The notes: generated by a model from the letters alone, not told the origin. 8,429 bases of DNA from an uncultured Bacilli bacterium (GCA_949113215.1 CARZYU010000045.1:1-8429), one strand, 5' to 3'; shown: positions 44 through 6,943, counted from the first letter of the stretch. Made by a program: numbers and translations.

Positions 44-121
44 CCGCGCGGGCGGTTTCCTAAAACGGTAATGAGAACTGGAACAATGTTAACAAACGGA
101 ATGTTGGGGCTCGCCCAGATT
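44..121 (+). repeat. DGR template repeat (TR), non-coding donor copy
   Basis: Ungapped 78-nt match to 1625-1702 at a constant offset of 1581, which is a multiple of 3. 61/78 positions are identical. 16 of the 17 differences are at TR adenines (A62,63,65,70,71,76,77,83,86,92,94,95,96,100,101,119), changed to C x8, G x5 and T x3. Six TR adenines are unchanged and 55/56 non-A positions are identical. Read in the VR frame, the TR has seven AAY (Asn) codons (64-66, 70-72, 76-78, 82-84, 85-87, 91-93, 100-102), the classic DGR design. It lies in non-coding DNA directly upstream of the RT. It is a GC-rich island in an AT-rich background. Confidence 0.9.
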
Positions 122-342
122 CACTTTTGAAGGAATCAAATTGGTTCAGAAAACAGATCTGTGAAATATATTTTAAGTAAAATATATCCGTATTTTAAAG
201 TGAAGGAATTTTCTTCTTTCTCGTCTCGCTAAGGAACAAGATTCTAATGCGAACGAAGCAATCAAAAAGCACTCACACAAACAACGAGTGAGGTTCACTC
301 TTTGGGCGTTATTCGGGGTGTTTCTTTTGTTGGAGGAAAACA
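122..342 (+). ncRNA. Spacer segment of the putative DGR RNA (between TR and RT), predicted to be structured
   Basis: 221 nt with no ORF between the TR end and the RT start. TCACTTT (121-127) is complementary to AAAGTGA (197-203), which closes a domain starting right at the TR 3' end. A 9-bp A/U hairpin spans 166-174/179-187 with loop AAGT. ACAGATCTGT (153-162) is a palindrome. TGAAGGAAT is directly repeated at 128-136 and 201-209. CACTC/GAGTG-type alternative pairings occur at 270-300. In the Bordetella phage BPP-1 DGR, the RNA 3' of the TR is required for priming cDNA synthesis. Exact RNA ends are unknown here. Confidence 0.5.
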
Positions 343-1371
343 ATGACAGTGGAAGAAATATTCACATTTGAAAACTTATACGATGCTTACAAGCATTGTA
401 GACTTGGAAAGCAACACAAGGGAGAGGTCATTCGTTTTGAAACAAATTTGGCCGTTCAGTTAAATGATTTAAGAAAAGATCTGAAGAGCAAAACGTATCA
501 ATTAGGAAATTATAAAACGTTTCATATTTATGAACCGAAAGAGCGGTTGATCGAGGCCCTTCCCTTTAAAGATCGTGTCGTAATCCGCTGTTTTTGTGAT
601 GTATGTTTAAAACCAAAGATAGAACCGAAGTTAATCTATGATAACTGTGCTTGTCGAAGGGGGGGAAAGGGGACAGCATTTGCGATTCGGAGGTTACATC
701 AATTTCTACGGAGTGTGTATTTCGAGGAAAAAACCAATCAATTCTATTTTTTAAAGTGTGATATTCGTAAGTATTTTCCCAATATCAATCATGACACTTT
801 AATTCATCTATTAGAAGAATTAAAGTTTTCTAAAGATGAAATGTGGATGAACGAAAAGTTAATCAAGGAGCAACCAGATCATTCGTCGCTAGGACTTCCT
901 CTTGGGAATCAATCTAGCCAGTGGTTTGCACTTCTCTATTTAAACAAAATTGATCATTTTATTAAAGAACAATTGAAAATAAAATACTATGTTCGTTATA
1001 TGGATGATATGATTTTGGTTCATCCGAACAAAGTTTATTTGGCGAAATGCAAACAAGAGATCAAAAAGATGTGTAAAGATCTTTTACAATTAGAACTGAA
1101 TGAAAAGACGCAAATTGGTATCGTAAAAAATGGAATTGATTTCCTTGGATATCGACATATGGTAAGCAAAACAGGAAAGATCATTGTGAAAATACGTTCT
1201 TCTTCCAAACAACGTATGAAAAAACACTTAAAAACGTTAAACAAGTTATACCAAAAGAATATCGTCGATGAAGACTATGTCTATTTAAGAAAAAATGCTT
1301 TTTACAATCATATCAAAGATACGAACGAGAATAAGAAATTTAAGGTTGACACCTTTCCTTCTAAAAAATAA
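343..1371 (+). CDS. DGR-type reverse transcriptase
   Basis: 342-aa ORF with a GGAGG RBS at 332-336, 6 nt before the ATG. The translation shows LPLGNQSSQ (nt 901-921), matching the [LIV]GxxxSQ motif that distinguishes DGR RTs from group II intron and retron RTs. It also shows the catalytic YMDD box in RYMDDMILV (nt 997-1008) and a downstream FLGY motif. It is compact, with no maturase, endonuclease or other appended domain. It sits immediately 3' of the TR. Confidence 0.93.
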   Translation: MTVEEIFTFENLYDAYKHCRLGKQHKGEVIRFETNLAVQLNDLRKDLKSKTYQLGNYKTFHIYEPKERLIEALPFKDRVVIRCFCDVCLKPKIEPKLIYDNCACRRGGKGTAFAIRRLHQFLRSVYFEEKTNQFYFLKCDIRKYFPNINHDTLIHLLEELKFSKDEMWMNEKLIKEQPDHSSLGLPLGNQSSQWFALLYLNKIDHFIKEQLKIKYYVRYMDDMILVHPNKVYLAKCKQEIKKMCKDLLQLELNEKTQIGIVKNGIDFLGYRHMVSKTGKIIVKIRSSSKQRMKKHLKTLNKLYQKNIVDEDYVYLRKNAFYNHIKDTNENKKFKVDTFPSKK

Positions 1372-1377
1372 AAGATT

Positions 1378-3342
1378 TTGGAAAATCATGGTATAATTGA
1401 CATGGTGATATCTATGTTTCAAAACGAAATAACCTTTTTAAGTTCAGATCAAATTTTTGGAAGAAATTCCTTGGACCTTTTTAAACATTATAGTAGAGAA
1501 TGTGCGATTACCGATTTTTCGATTTTATTAGGCGGTTATGTAGATGATAAGATAACAGTAGAGGATAATCTTGGAAAACATTATACTGATTGGTGGTGGA
1601 CGAGAGACTATTTTAATGATAGCTCCGCGCGGGCGGTTTCCCCGAGCGGTCGTGAGCTCTGGAGCACTGTTAGCCTCCGGTCTGTTGGGGCTCGCCCAGC
1701 TTTGCCGTACTCTCTCATCTCTTCCTTCTGCTCGAACGCAGTGAGAGTAAAAAAGGGAATTTGTGAAGTTCAATTTGGAGAATATCCACAATGGATTGTA
1801 GATCAAACCTTGGCACCTGAATTGGAATACCAATATAACAATGCTTCTACCATGAGGAATACAGGAAAAAAATATACGACAGATTCGGTTGATTGGGATG
1901 AATATGAGACTGGTTTTCTAGCGAAAGAACATATAGAATATGAGTATCAAAACAATAAATATATTCGAATAATAGGGGATTATAATGGAAAGGGAAAAAG
2001 ATTATCCGATGGTAGGAAGGTTAAAGAAGGAGATCCTTACTGGATTAAAGTAGAACCGATCACTTGGATAGTTGACGAAAAGGCCAATATTGCCCTTGCG
2101 AAATATCTTCTTTTTGCCGGGGTTCAATATGATCTTCTTAAAGATTATCAACAGGATTTTAATCAAACAAATATCAAGCGATTTTTAACGACGTATTTTG
2201 CCAATGATATTGTTGCATCACGAATAGTCCAAAATCAAGAAGAGCAAACTGGGAAAATAAGAAGGAAGCCAAATCCATATGGTTTTCATTTTAATGGTGT
2301 CAGTGAAGAGGATATGATTAAGGGAGCGGTGGAAAGTAATGTCCCCGTGTTTTTGCATGGCAAAAGTAGCGATGGAAAAAGCGCCAGGGTCAAGCAATTA
2401 GATCCCGATTGTGAGATCATTTATATGCGAAATGCTACTCCAGATAGTTTGAATGGAAAGAGTGTTTACAATGCAAACACTGGAGAGATGATCGATATAC
2501 CACCAACATGGTATCAAAGTCTAAAAGAAAAGTGTGAAAAAGAGCCTGACAAGATTCATATTTTATTTTTCGATGAATTAACCAATGCTCTACCATCCAT
2601 TCAAGGAATGGCCTTTAATATCGTATTAGACAAAGAAGTAAATGGAAAGTGGCAATTACCGGAGAACGTTCGAATTGTGGCAGCAGGAAACGATTTGAAC
2701 GATTCTTTAGCGGCCAATCAGATGGCAGAACCACTCTTCAATCGTTTTGCGCATGTTTATATTAATACGACGGTTGATAGCTGGTTGGAATGGGCGACAA
2801 CGCCAAACGAAAGTTACGAACGATTAAATTATGAGAAAGTGGTCGGAAAAAGGCCTAAAATTCATCCGGCAGTCTATGCTTACATTGCATATAAATCTTT
2901 TTCTCATCAAGATGTTTTGAGAACTCCTTATACGGGAGACAAACCCAATGCCGATCCTAGAAAATGGGAAATGGCCTCCAAGGTGCTGTATGAAACGAGG
3001 CAACCCGAGATGTTACGAGCTCTGATCGGAGAAGAATTGACAAGAGATTTTGTAATGTTTTCGAAACAATCCTTTTTAACGGTAGAAGATGTACTCAATC
3101 ACAATTACACAAAAGAAGAAATTGAAAGAATGAATGCGTCCATGAAATTTGCGACTGCGGTTGGACTTTCTTCTGTGGATCAAGAACATTTTGAAGTGAT
3201 AAGAGACTTTATGAAAGAGATTGGATCAGAACCCAAAGCAGCTTTTGAATCCATGTGGACGCATGGAGATGAAGATCGATTAGAACATCTTGCAGAAATT
3301 AGGCTAAAAGAAGCAAATATGGAAGGAGGAAAGGGAAAATGA
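1378..3342 (+). CDS. DGR variable (target) protein: N-terminal VR-bearing putative ligand-binding domain fused to a MoxR/AAA_5-like AAA+ ATPase
   Basis: 654-aa ORF. The VR covers codons 83-109 within ...YTDWWWTRDYFNDSSARAVSPSGRELWSTVSLRSVGARPALPY... AAA+ motifs are Walker A GKSSDGKS (G328-S335, nt 2359-2382) and Walker B ILFFDE (nt 2560-2577) followed by LTNALPSIQ in MoxR style. A sensor-1-like VAAGN is at nt 2677-2691, and LFNRF (R456, nt 2743-2745) resembles the MoxR L-x-DRF segment. The N-terminus has no signal peptide or TM segment. The start is uncertain: the track start at 1378 is TTG with a poor RBS. In-frame ATGs at 1402 and 1414 (GGTGA 5 nt upstream) are alternatives. Confidence 0.85.
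   Translation: MENHGIIDMVISMFQNEITFLSSDQIFGRNSLDLFKHYSRECAITDFSILLGGYVDDKITVEDNLGKHYTDWWWTRDYFNDSSARAVSPSGRELWSTVSLRSVGARPALPYSLISSFCSNAVRVKKGICEVQFGEYPQWIVDQTLAPELEYQYNNASTMRNTGKKYTTDSVDWDEYETGFLAKEHIEYEYQNNKYIRIIGDYNGKGKRLSDGRKVKEGDPYWIKVEPITWIVDEKANIALAKYLLFAGVQYDLLKDYQQDFNQTNIKRFLTTYFANDIVASRIVQNQEEQTGKIRRKPNPYGFHFNGVSEEDMIKGAVESNVPVFLHGKSSDGKSARVKQLDPDCEIIYMRNATPDSLNGKSVYNANTGEMIDIPPTWYQSLKEKCEKEPDKIHILFFDELTNALPSIQGMAFNIVLDKEVNGKWQLPENVRIVAAGNDLNDSLAANQMAEPLFNRFAHVYINTTVDSWLEWATTPNESYERLNYEKVVGKRPKIHPAVYAYIAYKSFSHQDVLRTPYTGDKPNADPRKWEMASKVLYETRQPEMLRALIGEELTRDFVMFSKQSFLTVEDVLNHNYTKEEIERMNASMKFATAVGLSSVDQEHFEVIRDFMKEIGSEPKAAFESMWTHGDEDRLEHLAEIRLKEANMEGGKGK
1625..1702 (+). repeat. DGR variable repeat (VR) inside the target CDS
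   Basis: This is the recipient copy of the TR (see feature 44-121). It is in frame and differs from the TR-encoded sequence at 10 codons (aa 89, 90, 92, 94, 96, 97, 99, 100, 102, 108). The scaffold residues (ARAVS, G91, E93, W95, V98, R101, VGARP) are encoded by TR bases other than mutated adenines. It is a local GC-rich island within an AT-rich gene. Confidence 0.9.
1684..1705 (+). other. Candidate IMH-like element at the VR 3' end (G/C-rich block GGGGCTCGCCC plus diverging flank)
   Basis: The TR 3' end is GTTGGGGCTCGCCCAGATTCAC and the VR 3' end is GTTGGGGCTCGCCCAGCTTTGC. The G/C-rich core is identical, followed by a few TR-versus-VR differences (1700, 1703, 1704). This is the arrangement described for IMH/IMH* in BPP-1. 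The assignment is by analogy only. Confidence 0.4.
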
Positions 3343-3740
3343 CAGAAGAGCGGATGGACTTGTTAGAGAAGTATTTAAGAAGTGGTTTTAATCCTATTTT
3401 AGTAGAAGATATTCCAGTAGATTCTTTCCACAACTCTGTCGTTTTACCAGCGACTCTTGATCCATTAGAACTCAATGGGCATTACGAAGATCGTAATTTT
3501 TGTCCTCCCCATTGGTATCAAGAATTAGTAGAAAAAAGTAAAAAAGAAGCAGTGATTTTACTGATTGAAAATATCAATGAGGTTGATCCTTTTGAACAGA
3601 ATAAATTTATCGAACTTTTAAAGTATAAGAAAATCAGTACCTTTTCTCTTCCTATGAATTGTCTCGTTCTTGTAACTTGTAAAAATTTAGAAGAAAGAAA
3701 GTTAAGTGAAGAGGTTTTCTCTTTGCTTGCGAAAATATAA
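3339..3740 (+). CDS. Small degenerate AAA+-like protein (paralog of the ATPase core of the upstream gene, Walker A and B ablated)
   Basis: 133-aa ORF. Its ATG overlaps the upstream TGA (ATGA at 3339-3342), and an AAGGAGG RBS lies at 3323-3329. By-eye alignment to aa ~310-440 of the 654-aa protein gives: CPPHWYQELVEKSKKE..VILLIENINEVDPFEQNKFIELL...SLPMNCLVLVTCKN versus IPPTWYQSLKEKCEKE...HILFFDELTNALPSIQGMAFNIVL...QLPENVRIVAAGN. The Walker A position reads EDIPVDSF instead of GKSSDGKS. Walker B DE is replaced by EN. Confidence 0.65.
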   Translation: MTEERMDLLEKYLRSGFNPILVEDIPVDSFHNSVVLPATLDPLELNGHYEDRNFCPPHWYQELVEKSKKEAVILLIENINEVDPFEQNKFIELLKYKKISTFSLPMNCLVLVTCKNLEERKLSEEVFSLLAKI

Positions 3741-3745
3741 GAGCA

Positions 3746-5119
3746 ATGATCGATATCGAAGCAATCAAACGAAAACTATTGGTAAAATATGCTCCTTTTG
3801 GAAGTGTAGTAGCCAATGTGGGTTTTAAGGAAGAAGATTCGGTTCCTACCGCTGGTACCGACGGTAAAACGATTTATTATAATTCGAAATTTGTAGAGTC
3901 TTTAACCGAAAAAGAAACGACGTTTCTTTTTGCTCATGAAATTTGTCATATTGCCTTTGACCATATTTATCGGTCCGAAGGAAAGGATGGGAAAATTTGG
4001 AATATTGCTACGGATGCGGTTATCAACGCCATGTTAAAGAAAGATAAACTACCTTTGATGAAAGGCGGAGTAGACAGGGAAGATGGAAACTATCTAAGTG
4101 CTGAGGAACTGTATGAGAAACTTTTAAAAGAGCAAAAGCAGGAAAATCAGAACAGTAATCAAGATGAATCAGAACATAATGATAAGTCACAGGAAAAGTC
4201 AAATCAGAATTCTAGTAACACCCAAGGAGACGGACAAGCAAGTGATAAAATGGAAGATAAACAAGAAAGCAGTGAAGGATCTTCGAAGGAGGAACAACAA
4301 GATAAGGATCAAGATGTGGGACACGATACACATGAAATGTGGAAAAAAGCAGTGAAGGAACGACAAGAAGAGAGAAAAAAGAGCCAAGAAAATGATAAGG
4401 GCGAAGAAAATCCTTCTACGAATAAAACGGAACCAATCAACGAGCAAGAAGTGTTTAAACAACTGCAAATAGAGAGAAAAAAACAGTTGGAGGAACTGCG
4501 CAAGTCCATTGTGAAAGAGTCACATACTCCTGGAGCAATGAGTAATGGTGAAGTGAGAGAGGTAAATGAAATTGGAGTTTCCAAACCACTGATCGATTGG
4601 CGAAGGTTATTAAAAGAGGCTATCAAATTCGATGTCGATTGGACGTATCAAAATGCCAGTGTTGAAGATGGAGTAGTGACCCCTTATTTGGAAGAACTTC
4701 CAAAACCAGAGACAGAAATTGTCTTAGATACGAGTGGTTCGATCGATGAAAACTTGCTTCGCAACTTCTTGAGAGAATGTAAGAATATTTTACAAAATTC
4801 CAAGGTGAAGGTAGGTTGTTTTGATACAAGGTTTTATGGTTTTACGGAAATCAGAAGTATAGAAGATATCGATCGTCTAACGTTTCAAGGTGGTGGCGGT
4901 ACGAACTTTGATGTTGCCGTTTCTGCTTTTACAAAAAGAGTAGAAAATAAAATCATCTTTACCGATGGAGAAGCCTCGATGCCTAGTATGTCCCTTGATG
5001 CAGTCTGGGTTGTATTTGGAAGTAGAAAAATAGCACCACCTGGTGGAAAGGTCATTCCAATCGATGAAGAGGCCCTTGAAAATTTATCTTATGACACTTC
5101 TTCAAAACACCGAAGATAA
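3746..5119 (+). CDS. Putative metallopeptidase-like (HExxH) plus VWA-domain protein, DUF2201-type partner of MoxR ATPases
   Basis: 457-aa ORF starting 5 nt after the previous stop. The N-terminal domain has HEICHIAFDH (H64-H68, nt 3935-3949) followed by NIATDAVIN. Residues ~125-260 form a Q/E/K/S/N/D-rich low-complexity linker. The C-terminal domain has a MIDAS-like DTSGS (D328-S332, nt 4727-4741), then GGGTNF and a FTDGE segment typical of VWA folds. This HExxH N-domain plus VWA-like C-domain architecture is what I recall for Pfam DUF2201_N/DUF2201 proteins, which usually neighbour MoxR AAA+ genes. Confidence 0.85.
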   Translation: MIDIEAIKRKLLVKYAPFGSVVANVGFKEEDSVPTAGTDGKTIYYNSKFVESLTEKETTFLFAHEICHIAFDHIYRSEGKDGKIWNIATDAVINAMLKKDKLPLMKGGVDREDGNYLSAEELYEKLLKEQKQENQNSNQDESEHNDKSQEKSNQNSSNTQGDGQASDKMEDKQESSEGSSKEEQQDKDQDVGHDTHEMWKKAVKERQEERKKSQENDKGEENPSTNKTEPINEQEVFKQLQIERKKQLEELRKSIVKESHTPGAMSNGEVREVNEIGVSKPLIDWRRLLKEAIKFDVDWTYQNASVEDGVVTPYLEELPKPETEIVLDTSGSIDENLLRNFLRECKNILQNSKVKVGCFDTRFYGFTEIRSIEDIDRLTFQGGGGTNFDVAVSAFTKRVENKIIFTDGEASMPSMSLDAVWVVFGSRKIAPPGGKVIPIDEEALENLSYDTSSKHRR

Positions 5120-5151
5120 AAAATCTCACTTGAATTCAAGTGAGATTTTTT
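5118..5151. terminator. Bidirectional Rho-independent terminator (perfect palindrome)
   Basis: AAAAAATCTCACTTGAATTCAAGTGAGATTTTTT is a perfect 34-nt palindrome. The core 9-bp stem is TCTCACTTG/CAAGTGAGA (5124-5132/5137-5145) with loop AATT. An A-run lies on the left and a T-run on the right. It sits between the convergent stops at 5119 (+) and 5155 (-). Confidence 0.88.
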
Positions 5152-5154
5152 CTG

Positions 5155-5994
5155 TTAGAGAGAAATGTTTAGTTTTCGATTGATTGTCACGCATATCTTT
5201 CGAATGAGCCCATTTCCATATTTGTTTTTAAATTGATCTGTTTCAAATATTTTCTTAAATTCTTCAAAACTTCTAGAAGCAGGAATTCTTGGGATTTTAT
5301 AATTATCAACACCTTTGGTGGCAAATTCTTCTTCTCCGGCAAAGGCAAGCTTATAGTTTTCTTCTTTCAAACTCTTAATAAAGTCTTCTGTATAAGTGTA
5401 ATAAGGATAAGCCAAATATTCTGCGGGAAAGAGCGCTTGGAACTTTTTAGTGTCTTCCCTTAGTTCTTGATACGTTTTCTTTTTGATAATAGGAGTTCCA
5501 TCTTCTGCTTGACGATGTAATCCATAAGTGTGGGAACCAAATGTAATTTGACCATCGTGATTTTTGATATCATTTAAGCCGATGAAATCAGTTCCTTCGC
5601 TTGAAGTTTCTCCAGTAAACTCTCCAACAACAAAAGAAGTAGCTTTGAAGTGGTACTTGTCTAAGACAGGTTTTGCATATTTAAGGAAAGAATAGTATCC
5701 ATCATCAAATGTAATCATAAAAGATTTTTCTGGTATCTTCTGATTCTTTTCTTTCCAATTGTAATATTCTTCGGGAGAAATACTAACGTATCCTTTTTCT
5801 TTTAAATAATTTAGCTGTCTTTCAAACTCTTCTACGGTCAACGCATCAACATCCTTTTCTTCCTCTGTTAAGACAATGCGGTGATAAGCAAGAACTGGGA
5901 ATTGTTGTTGATGTTTGTGATATTCTTTCCATAATAGAAAGGCAATGAAGAAGCTTAAGATCGCTAATGATAAATAGATTAATTTCTTTTTCAT
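5155..5994 (-). CDS. Membrane-anchored polysaccharide deacetylase (CE4 / NodB-homology, PgaB/IcaB-like)
   Basis: The translation shows an N-terminal hydrophobic anchor (KKKLIYLSLAILSFFIAFLLW), then LAYHRI, the TFDDG motif (ITFDDGYYSF) and the His motif GSHTYGLH. The track ORF begins at a TTG (6000). I prefer the ATG at 5994 (third codon), which lies 8 nt downstream of an AAGGA RBS on the minus strand. Confidence 0.85.
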   Translation of the reverse strand: MKKKLIYLSLAILSFFIAFLLWKEYHKHQQQFPVLAYHRIVLTEEEKDVDALTVEEFERQLNYLKEKGYVSISPEEYYNWKEKNQKIPEKSFMITFDDGYYSFLKYAKPVLDKYHFKATSFVVGEFTGETSSEGTDFIGLNDIKNHDGQITFGSHTYGLHRQAEDGTPIIKKKTYQELREDTKKFQALFPAEYLAYPYYTYTEDFIKSLKEENYKLAFAGEEEFATKGVDNYKIPRIPASRSFEEFKKIFETDQFKNKYGNGLIRKICVTINRKLNISL

Positions 5995-6133: not shown

Positions 6134-6943
6134 TCATGCTCGATTATTTTTCAAATATTTATTATCGCTTTCTGATAATATCTTCATTTGAGAAATGGCA
6201 ATTTTATTTAATCTATCAAGTCTATTTGATTGATTTAATCCATCGTTTATAAATACTGCATTTAAATTTTCTAAATTTGCTAAACATATTAGCTCATCAA
6301 TAGAAGCATAATCTCTTATATTTCCACTTTTATCTTTATTTTTCTCTCTCCAACTTTTTGCAGTCAGACCAAATAAAGCCATATTTAGAACATCTGCTTC
6401 TTCAGCATAAATATAATTTATTTCTTCTTTTGTTAATTCTTTAGGTATTAAATTATCCTTAATAGCGCTAGTATGAATTTTGTAATTGATTTTAGATAAT
6501 TCTCTTTTAACATTCCATCCCATTTGCCTTTGTTCTTCAGTCTTTAATCTTTCAAATTCTTTTATTAATAGTAATTTGAACTTGGGACTAATCCACATGC
6601 CAAATTCAAATGCTATATCCTTATGAGCGTACGTTCCCCCATATCTTCCTGCTTTTGATACAATACCAATAGCATTTGTTTTACGAGCCCATTCTTTAAC
6701 GCTAATTTTATAACGGTTAAGACCTGCTTGACTTTTAATTATGGCGAATTCGCCATAATTAAAATTAGGATTGTGAAGTTCTTCCCAAATACCCAAAAAT
6801 TCAATTGTATTTCTATTCCTTAACCAATCAGATACAAAAAATTCACCATCTTTTGACTTAAGCATATCCGTAATAGAAATATAATCTTCATCATTTATTT
6901 TTGTATAATTAATTATTTGATTATCAACATTTAATTCCAACAT
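6134..6943 (-). CDS. KilA-N domain-containing protein (phage/accessory-type DNA-binding domain) with a helical C-terminal half
   Basis: 269-aa ORF with an AAGGAG RBS (complement of 6951-6956). The N-terminal half has the KilA-N-like pattern ...ISITDM...WLRNRNTIEFLGIWE...GRYGGTYAHKDIAFEFGMWISPKFKLLLIKEF... It is markedly more AT-rich than its neighbours. Confidence 0.75.
   Translation of the reverse strand: MLELNVDNQIINYTKINDEDYISITDMLKSKDGEFFVSDWLRNRNTIEFLGIWEELHNPNFNYGEFAIIKSQAGLNRYKISVKEWARKTNAIGIVSKAGRYGGTYAHKDIAFEFGMWISPKFKLLLIKEFERLKTEEQRQMGWNVKRELSKINYKIHTSAIKDNLIPKELTKEEINYIYAEEADVLNMALFGLTAKSWREKNKDKSGNIRDYASIDELICLANLENLNAVFINDGLNQSNRLDRLNKIAISQMKILSESDNKYLKNNRA

Follow-up and report, generated by a model that had tools for sequence, protein, structure and literature searches.

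An 8,429-nucleotide stretch of DNA from an uncultured Bacilli bacterium (GCA_949113215.1, CARZYU010000045.1:1-8429), the whole of which is referred to here as the window, was analyzed computationally. In our judgment (probability roughly 0.85), the greater part of a diversity-generating retroelement (DGR) of canonical type lies in the window; it diversifies the N-terminal domain of an AAA+ ATPase and, in doing so, also switches this target off and on. To our knowledge, DGRs are the only natural machines for targeted protein hypervariation in prokaryotes; their characterized targets are mostly phage tail fibers or surface proteins. The mechanism of the present element is the canonical one, already known, and what is new is the architecture of the target together with a nonsense-prone template. 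The features at the core of the element are as follows.

44-121, + strand: template repeat (TR), with a 5' homology block (44-60), mutable adenines (62-101), and a G+C-rich 3' block (104-118)
343-1371, + strand: DGR reverse transcriptase (RT) of 342 amino acids (aa), with PDB, Pfam, and PHROG matches and motifs in its translation
1414-3342, + strand: target gene, 642 aa; the open reading frame (ORF) is open from 1378, and the probable start is the ATG at 1414, because homologues begin there
1625-1702, + strand: variable repeat (VR) within the target gene, ORF residues 83-108 (SARAVSPSGRELWSTVSLRSVGARPA), equal to residues 71-96 counted from M1414

Adenine-specific transfer between two repeats

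The two repeats align without gaps over 78 nucleotides (nt), with 61 identities and 17 mismatches, and nearly all of the mismatches are of one kind: 16 fall on adenines of the TR (A>C in eight cases, A>G in five, and A>T in three) and the remaining one is T61>C, such that the VR matches 55 of the 56 non-A positions of a TR that contains 22 adenines. The probability of finding at least 16 of 17 mismatches at these 22 adenines is 6.7e-11 (hypergeometric), and the best ungapped 78-nt match in five shuffled windows reached 42-47 identities, compared with the 61 of the real pair. The homology breaks off abruptly at both ends, and the VR forms an island of 62% G+C in surrounding DNA of about 30% G+C. 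Realignment and tabulation by TR base reproduced the gapless pair, the mismatch spectrum, and the non-A identity exactly as they had been claimed in a preliminary description of this DNA, which had also correctly counted seven AAY codons in the TR, read in the frame of the VR, and ten codons that differ in the VR. Its figure of 4^22 possible variants needs to be lowered, as the adenines at 62-101 are the usable set; once A119 is set aside (see below), 15 mutagenic substitutions are found among the 20 adenines of this interval, and A117 lies within the conserved block. By arithmetic from the codon list, the usable repertoire comes to about 4^20 DNA variants and about 8e10 peptides.

The same asymmetry is found beyond the window. 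Across 19 related loci with a detectable pair, 218 of 230 TR/VR mismatches lie at TR adenines, and 44% of TR adenines are changed, versus 0.6-2% of the other bases. An ordinary duplication or gene conversion that diverged by point mutation, with nothing specific to retroelements about it, would account for the existence of a repeat and for nothing more; this explanation is effectively refuted by the adenine and strand specificity of the mismatches in the window, by the recurrence of the asymmetry in 19 independent loci, and by the location of one copy in non-coding DNA, within a covarying RNA and beside a DGR-type RT.

The reverse transcriptase and a probable accessory protein

Judged by its PDB matches and motifs, the RT is of the DGR type. 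Its best solved relative is bRT of the Bordetella phage (8ub7; E = 5.5e-37, 131 bits), with family matches to Pfam RVT_1 (7e-18) and phrog_1423 (8.7e-99), and the intact ORF carries the YMDD motif as well as LGNQSSQ, a GxxxSQ form of motif 4. GxxxSQ is a DGR hallmark that takes the place of the QGxxxSP of other RTs (DiGReF paper, PMC3521204). An RT of another class (retron, group II intron, or Abi/DRT defense RT) beside an incidental repeat could draw on sub-threshold NCBIfam and PADLOC matches to group II, Drt3a, retron, and UG-type models; nevertheless, these lie far below the curated cut-offs, the next PDB matches, which are to RTs of group II introns, retrons, and Drt3a, reach at most 48.5 bits, motif 4 has the DGR form, and the accessory protein Avd accompanies the RT in relatives, all of which makes such an origin very improbable.

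A further correction to the preliminary description concerns the accessory gene avd. By comparison with the closest related locus (L001), which has 78% identity in the target and is syntenic down to the S10 operon, avd would lie just beyond the 5' end of the window, and an involvement of Avd in the present element may be inferred by analogy. In L001, a 193-aa ORF ends 86 nt before the TR and matches phrog_3206, annotated 'Avd protein of DGR' (2.4e-17), as well as Pfam bAvd below its cut-off (3e-5); an Avd homologue is present upstream of the RT in L001 and 24 other related loci, 25 in all. The closest relatives also have in common, just upstream of avd, an ORF of 192 aa that is conserved and includes a hydrophobic, glycine-rich segment (L001 2815-3393; L081 757-1335); no family match was found for this ORF.

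A covarying RNA and a fixed 3' boundary

The TR is embedded in an RNA with conserved structure on its flanks, as in other DGRs, and the elements of this RNA that fall in the window are listed below together with a hairpin downstream of the VR.

1-9, + strand: 3' end of the upstream strand in a long-range RNA duplex whose loop encloses the TR; pairs with 207-218 and is truncated at the window edge
122-342, + strand: structured spacer RNA 3' of the TR, covarying in alignment A3 (17 loci)
120-127/197-204, 133-137/143-147, and 166-174/179-187: spacer helices, of which the first joins the TR 3' end with the spacer and the third has 9 base pairs (bp) and a tetraloop
225-229/249-253, 267-274/316-323, and 281-287/299-305: further spacer helices
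1729-1749, + strand: candidate hairpin (TGCTC / GAGTA) about 27 nt 3' of the VR, a possible target-recognition element

Alignment A3 covers the intergenic region from avd to the RT gene in 17 loci and was compared with controls in which pairing partners were slid by 1-3 columns and with 500 shuffles. The consensus structure comprises 72 pairs; 96.7% of cells are paired, versus 41-53% in the slid controls, and 34 pairs are changed on both sides, versus 4-10. None of the 500 shuffles reached the observed values on four of five measures, and two did so on the fifth. Helix 2 (1-9/207-218), whose arms lie just upstream of and about 90 nt downstream of the TR, comprises 12 consensus pairs, with compensatory changes at seven and pairing in 98.5% of cells; adjoining it, TR positions 115-116 pair with 205-206. 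The spacer RNA of the window retains all of the conserved helices, and avd and a GNRA hairpin are placed farther upstream, off the window, as in L001. Conserved RNA elements described for DGRs include a distal duplex termed 'cPRT Stop' (13 bp on average) and an Avd-binding stem-loop (commonly 9 bp with a tetraloop) (bioRxiv 10.1101/2023.10.23.563531), and the 12-bp duplex and 9-bp tetraloop stem found here would match these two elements, in position and size only. No Rfam family matches the TR/spacer RNA.

The 3' limit of the transferred information is also fixed. In 19 of 19 related loci, the TR ends in ...CCAGATT and the VR in ...CCAGCTT: both copies share the G+C-rich block GTTGGGGCTCGCCCAG, followed by an invariable A in the TR or C in the VR and then by unrelated sequence. 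The VR accordingly has the G+C-rich 3' end, with a differing counterpart in the TR, by which the initiation of mutagenic homing (IMH) site of a DGR is recognized in sequence. The preliminary description had counted A119>C (119 against 1700) as a mutagenic substitution, which was mistaken; because it is identical in all 19 loci, it is to be read from the alignments as a constant donor/recipient difference that marks the 3' limit of information transfer. At this boundary, the VR encodes the conserved motif RPAL, where the TR would encode RPD, and in the consensus RNA structure A117-A119 (AGA) is unpaired between two helices. By analogy with cis-priming in the Bordetella phage BPP-1, synthesis of complementary DNA (cDNA) probably starts at about G118, which would explain why A119 is never transferred.

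Downstream of the VR, the block TCGAACG.AGTGAGAG at the candidate hairpin is kept across loci, and its 5-bp stem shows compensatory changes in 5-6 sequences. A role as target-recognition element is possible; the evidence is weak because the region is coding.

The diversified domain of the target ATPase

In the target, an N-terminal domain of about 285 aa that contains the VR is joined to an AAA+ ATPase with GKSSDGKS as Walker A and FFDE as Walker B. The nature of the target had gone unmentioned in the preliminary description. Matches to the AAA+ half include phrog_1297 (8e-41) and, by Foldseek, MCM-type AAA+ proteins (MCM subunits; E about 5e-6), with weak Pfam matches under the cut-offs (AAA_5, 0.011; Sigma54_activat, 7.5e-4); some phage homologues of the ATPase half are annotated as 'MoxR-like ATPase'. 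The N-terminal domain is modeled with a confidence (pLDDT) of about 90 over most of its length in the full-length protein, and of 77, with a pTM of 0.78, when modeled alone. In these models, the VR is predicted to occupy a beta-hairpin and the loop that follows it, and the column entropy of 121 homologues peaks precisely at the A-rich codons of the TR (ORF residues 88-90, 92-94, 96-97, 99-100, and 102). The domain probably binds a ligand. Its family numbers 1,671 representatives at 50% identity, many of them stand-alone proteins of about 300 aa. Weak Pfam matches to DUF6273 occur in nine of 52 family members, and a wider set of 76 again yields nine; for the window protein, Pfam gives no DUF6273 match even at E = 10, and two BFVD proteins with DUF6273 rank, non-significantly, among the top Foldseek matches of the domain.

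Stop codons in the template

In the frame of the VR, the TR reads TCC TAA AAC GGT AAT GAG AAC TGG AAC AAT GTT AAC AAA CGG AAT, and thus contains an in-frame TAA at 61-63 and an AAA at 94-96. Under adenine mutagenesis, the former may stay TAA or turn to TAG or TGA, and the latter can reach the same stops; at the observed 45% substitution per adenine, the expected null fraction is about 0.5 per retrohoming event. The earlier assertion that mutagenesis never yields a stop is true of the AAY codons and wrong for the element as a whole, since its TR holds both of these codons; it is also contradicted by null alleles at such codons, which six of 19 relatives and two sister-species samples carry. Of the 19 TRs, 13 contain one or two stops in frame (TAA, TAG, or TGA), 16 stop codons in total, and VR stops were found in six of 19 loci (seven codons, all seven at TR stop positions). 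The retention of seven of 16 TR stop codons as VR stops is near the value of about 0.5 expected without selection, in what is a small sample. In the sister species, the TAA codon reads TAG, TAA, and TGG in three different samples and is null in two of them. Loci cited for template or VR stops besides the window are L008, L011, L020, L021, L034, L074, L081, and L082, and in gene predictions a null allele appears as two products, one of 88-90 aa and another of about 527-569 aa.

A reassigned genetic code, in which TGA would encode Trp, was considered and rejected: the genes of the window use TGG for Trp, the conserved ORFs are without in-frame TGA, and several of the VR stops are TAA or TAG. The TNN codons in question reach Trp, Tyr, Phe, Cys, and Leu, which the AAY codons do not fully cover, and across the same 121 homologues ORF position 95 is mostly Trp and Cys. 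Surveys state that the codons of DGR templates prevent nonsense (PMC10907252; 10.1101/2024.11.15.621889). Judged from these alignments, the family with stop-bearing templates is an exception to that published rule, and it offers a natural case for asking whether DGRs also serve phase variation.

Only two T mismatches occur in total among the 361 template T's of the 19 loci, namely the T>C of the window (61 against 1642) and a T>A in L009, and both hit the T of the same TAA codon. This could reflect selection against a stop-prone codon or chance (roughly 1 in 19). The idea that T61 is a recent mutation of the TR, given that L001 has an A there, was dropped, as TAA or TAG at that codon is common to seven of the 19 TRs.

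Proposed mechanism

The following sequence of events is proposed. An RNA running from upstream of base 1 through the TR and the spacer (122-342) would be bound by the RT and by an Avd encoded off the window, with the 1-9/207-218 duplex and the 120-127/197-204 pairing framing the template. Synthesis of cDNA would start near G118 and copy the TR faithfully save at adenines, and the cDNA would replace the VR through the shared G+C-rich ends, A119 never being transferred. Ten codons (the fixed GAT at 118-120 excluded) would in this way be diversified in a cytoplasmic ATPase, at the hairpin and loop of its N-terminal domain, and this ATPase would work with a degenerate AAA+ fragment and a metallopeptidase-VWA partner encoded downstream. 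About half of the retrohoming events would give a null allele, because the TR holds the in-frame TAA and AAA, and the target would be both varied and switched off and on. The cassette is compact (about 5 kb) and has a well-defined RNA scaffold.

Distribution and activity

More than 3,000 homologues of the target are present in the protein collection, and relatives were found in at least 241 of 185,579 species genomes scanned, mostly metagenome-assembled genomes of uncultured gut 'Bacilli', 'Tenericutes', or 'Mollicutes'; IMG/VR yielded one matching contig only. The order [variable domain-AAA+]-[133-aa fragment]-[metallopeptidase-VWA] is kept in 79 of 79 related loci, as far as the contigs reach. 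Avd, TR, and RT lie directly upstream of this module in about 25-29 loci, and others have no adjacent DGR. Some genomes hold tandem arrays of two to four variable-domain-ATPase genes (L051, L054, L066, and L069), and some copies are near-identical over 500 nt, for example in L054, which has Avd and RT upstream; such arrays could provide diversity by a different route, or a single DGR could have several targets in them.

Variation of the VR against a constant template is directly visible in a sister species, for which three samples (L081, L082, and L084) have an identical TR and three different VRs, which differ from the TR at adenines save for four non-A positions. In a cluster of proteins formed at 90% identity (cluster 5), 17 variable positions fall in the 24 residues of the VR, versus seven in the remaining 635 or so. 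As read from these comparisons, the family is actively diversified in nature, and the earlier interpretation as a DGR operating by mutagenic retrohoming is upheld by the DGR-type RT, the covarying RNA, and the adenine-only pattern in 19 loci. The element had also been called active or recently active; this is well supported for the family, in which VRs vary and the TR is constant, and for the window locus we infer current activity from the intact RT and the single non-A mismatch.

Several observations weigh against the reading given at the outset. The window starts 43 nt upstream of the TR, which leaves avd outside the sequence covered and only a fragment of the upstream RNA in the first 43 bases. 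The mismatch T61>C, the sole one at a non-A position, falls outside the adenine pattern. Neither a second allele nor an upstream avd was recovered for the exact species: searches for exact matches to the RT, target, and VWA proteins gave no result, and a look-up of the 133-aa protein returned only a 2.8-kb contig (NCBI CATLMK010000098.1, GCA_950022715.1; L085) that is 100% identical to 1143-3958 and is the sole other copy found; when metagenomes were scanned for the TR/spacer junction, two loci emerged, each from a more distant relative. The VR stops in metagenome-assembled genomes may partly reflect consensus or chimeric assembly of mixed populations. With respect to the fold, Foldseek with the model of the N-terminal domain gave no significant match to a C-type lectin or other fold in PDB or BFVD, a profile of the domain (76 sequences) found zero relatives among PDB sequences, and Foldseek with the full-length model returned AAA+ (MCM) matches only, so that the C-lectin fold expected of a DGR target is unconfirmed for the modeled domain. 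Lastly, PADLOC has no model matching the target, the 133-aa protein, or the VWA partner.

Some of these points would also fit a relic, in which the TR/VR pair and the RT ORF survive and retrohoming has ceased (e.g., through loss of avd or of a promoter), leaving the VR frozen: avd is not visible in the window, one non-A mismatch has accrued, no second allele of the species was found, and the many related loci that hold the target module without an adjacent DGR indicate that DGR loss does happen. The RT ORF is nevertheless intact with its catalytic motifs, every conserved spacer helix is kept, all non-A positions of the TR but one are still identical in the VR, and in the closest relatives avd is located where expected and the VRs differ between samples. 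We regard a relic as rather unlikely and favor a functional DGR at this locus.

Partner genes and possible roles of the module

Downstream of the target, the window contains the two partner genes named above and the probable end of the operon.

3339-3740, + strand: degenerate AAA+ core fragment of 133 aa; its start overlaps the target stop codon (ATGA)
3746-5119, + strand: metallopeptidase-VWA partner; HExxH domain DUF2201_N (here HEICH) at the N-terminus, VWA-like domain DUF2201 (DTSGS MIDAS motif) at the C-terminus
5113-5156, no strand assigned: 22-nt inverted repeat (I4; 91% complementary, zero spacer) with a T run after it, located where the VWA and deacetylase genes converge

The 133-aa protein lacks a Walker A motif, has EN in place of the DE of Walker B, and aligns with the AAA+ half of the target at E = 8e-6 (BLASTP); it has zero matches in Pfam, NCBIfam, PADLOC, and PHROG. 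Of 69 related loci with the ATPase and VWA genes on one contig, 67 have the gene for this protein between them. The partner matches DUF2201_N (6.7e-30), DUF2201 (1.1e-13), and phrog_1314 (1.2e-67), and among 79 related loci there are 69 with a VWA homologue after the target module, whereas the sequence of the other ten ends within about 1.3 kb of the module. The inverted repeat probably marks the end of the operon; the genes farther on encode a polysaccharide deacetylase (convergent) and a KilA-N protein, and the S10 ribosomal protein operon is also found there.

The KilA-N protein (6134-6943, - strand) matches the PADLOC phage-defense candidate PDC-S22 (E = 2e-125), and L001 has a DUF1016/YhcG nuclease in the same interval, which suggests that the stretch between the VWA gene and the S10 operon is a variable, defense-island-like spot. 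Two further observations concern this flank: an S10-Clostridia leader (Rfam RF03136; 7212-7310, + strand) precedes rpsJ with 38.1 bits against a gathering score of 35.1, and a perfect palindrome of 16+16 nt with zero spacer (TTTTAATTATGGCGAA/TTCGCCATAATTAAAA) is located at 6733-6764, inside the KilA-N gene.

An arrangement in which the diversified patch is near the start of an intracellular ATPase, with a metallopeptidase-VWA protein as its partner, would be expected of an adaptive sensor coupled to an effector, and by analogy the module probably functions inside the cell as sensor and effector in conflicts with phages or other invading elements; given that no PADLOC model matches it, a defense role rests on architecture and analogy. 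Tentatively, and as a possibility that we rate as less likely than not, the DGR may be both diversifier and stochastic on/off switch of a cytoplasmic sensor-ATPase immune module, whose templates deliberately keep TAA/TGA in frame. If this joint reading holds, such codons would open positions important for binding to Trp, Tyr, Phe, Cys, and Leu, and roughly every second retrohoming event would write nonsense about 75 residues into the target, with null alleles then found in nature at about the frequency expected without selection.

The same DGR might instead serve a non-immune module, in which the ATPase-VWA pair is a housekeeping chaperone similar to NorQ/NorD or RavA/ViaA and the variable domain adapts it to substrates or host-derived ligands; the TR stops would then be a price that is put up with for access to Trp, Tyr, Phe, Cys, and Leu, and there would be no switch. 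Characterized MoxR-VWA pairs are described as chaperones or metal-insertion factors, the TNN codons do reach aromatic residues beyond those of AAY, with Trp and Cys dominating ORF position 95, and the module is without a PADLOC model match. A hypervariable binding surface is, however, hard to reconcile with a fixed substrate, and nulls occur near the frequency expected without selection, which suggests that the gene is dispensable. The module is moreover patchy in distribution, duplicated in arrays, and next to a defense-candidate gene, and published work has argued for a role in conflict for those MoxR/vWA systems that DGRs diversify (PMC7159879, PMC10907252). A housekeeping role, including the absence of a switch, is in our view a possibility of the minority sort.

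Comparison with known systems

The closest mechanistic parallel is the DGR of BPP-1 (bRT, Avd, TR, and the target Mtd), with which the window shares adenine-specific transfer from TR to VR, a homologous RT, Avd (in the relatives of the window), a TR flanked by a distal duplex and, just downstream, by a tetraloop stem of about 9 bp, and a G+C-rich 3' block with a donor/recipient difference. The gene order is avd-TR-RT-target in the window (avd from relatives), whereas in BPP-1 it is target-avd-TR-RT, and the VR lies near the N-terminus of a 642-aa protein rather than at the C-terminus of the target. The target itself is a cytoplasmic AAA+ ATPase, encoded in the chromosome of gut Bacilli, where BPP-1 diversifies a phage tail fiber, and the window TR, unlike that of BPP-1, has in-frame stops. 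A second likeness is to the Tentaclin-type DGR targets of phages nd4 and nd12, which have an N-terminal DUF6273 (PMC10743442), echoed by the weak DUF6273 matches in the family of the window; here, however, AAA+ follows downstream, Ig-like tail-fiber domains are absent, and the protein is cellular and not a phage receptor-binding protein.

Phages also carry a gene pair of AAA+ and DUF2201 VWA proteins (phrog_1297 and phrog_1314), and the ATPase half and the partner match these families strongly, with the values given above. Relatives of the ATPase half occur in 572 phage records; none of the cultured-phage records covers the N-terminal variable domain (coverage 53% or less), and no DGR is implied there. 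An N-terminal VR was present in three of the 372 DGRs of Wu et al. (PMC5758913), ATPase targets are not mentioned in the main text of the DGR survey by Roux et al., and the literature searched contained no paper linking a DGR with DUF2201. The set of properties combined here is unusual: the avd-TR-RT-target order, the N-terminal VR, the fusion to AAA+, the metallopeptidase-VWA and degenerate AAA+ partners, and the stops in the template.

Lastly, the nearest functional parallel is found in the MoxR-vWA (VMAP) ternary conflict systems of cyanobacteria and Thiohalocapsa, which, like the window, combine a DGR-diversified putative sensor, an AAA+ ATPase with a vWA protein, and a peptidase effector, all predicted to be cytoplasmic (PMC7159879, PMC10907252). 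The vWA partner that characterizes these systems is present beside the ATPase of the window; a VMAP protein was not found there, the third gene being the 133-aa AAA+ fragment, as judged by size and AAA+ similarity and without a dedicated VMAP profile. The VMAP systems have a C-terminal variable domain of the C-lectin/FGS kind, usually on the vWA protein, together with MoxR as a gene of its own, VMAP as the third component, and multicellular hosts, whereas in the window the variable domain is N-terminal on the ATPase, the peptidase is fused to the VWA domain, the third gene encodes a degenerate AAA+ protein, and the hosts are small-genome gut Bacilli. Judged by this comparison, the module is therefore not a member of the VMAP family, though it may work similarly, and the switch reading, tentative as it is, would extend DGR-armed ATPase/vWA conflict systems from multicellular bacteria to gut Bacilli with small genomes.

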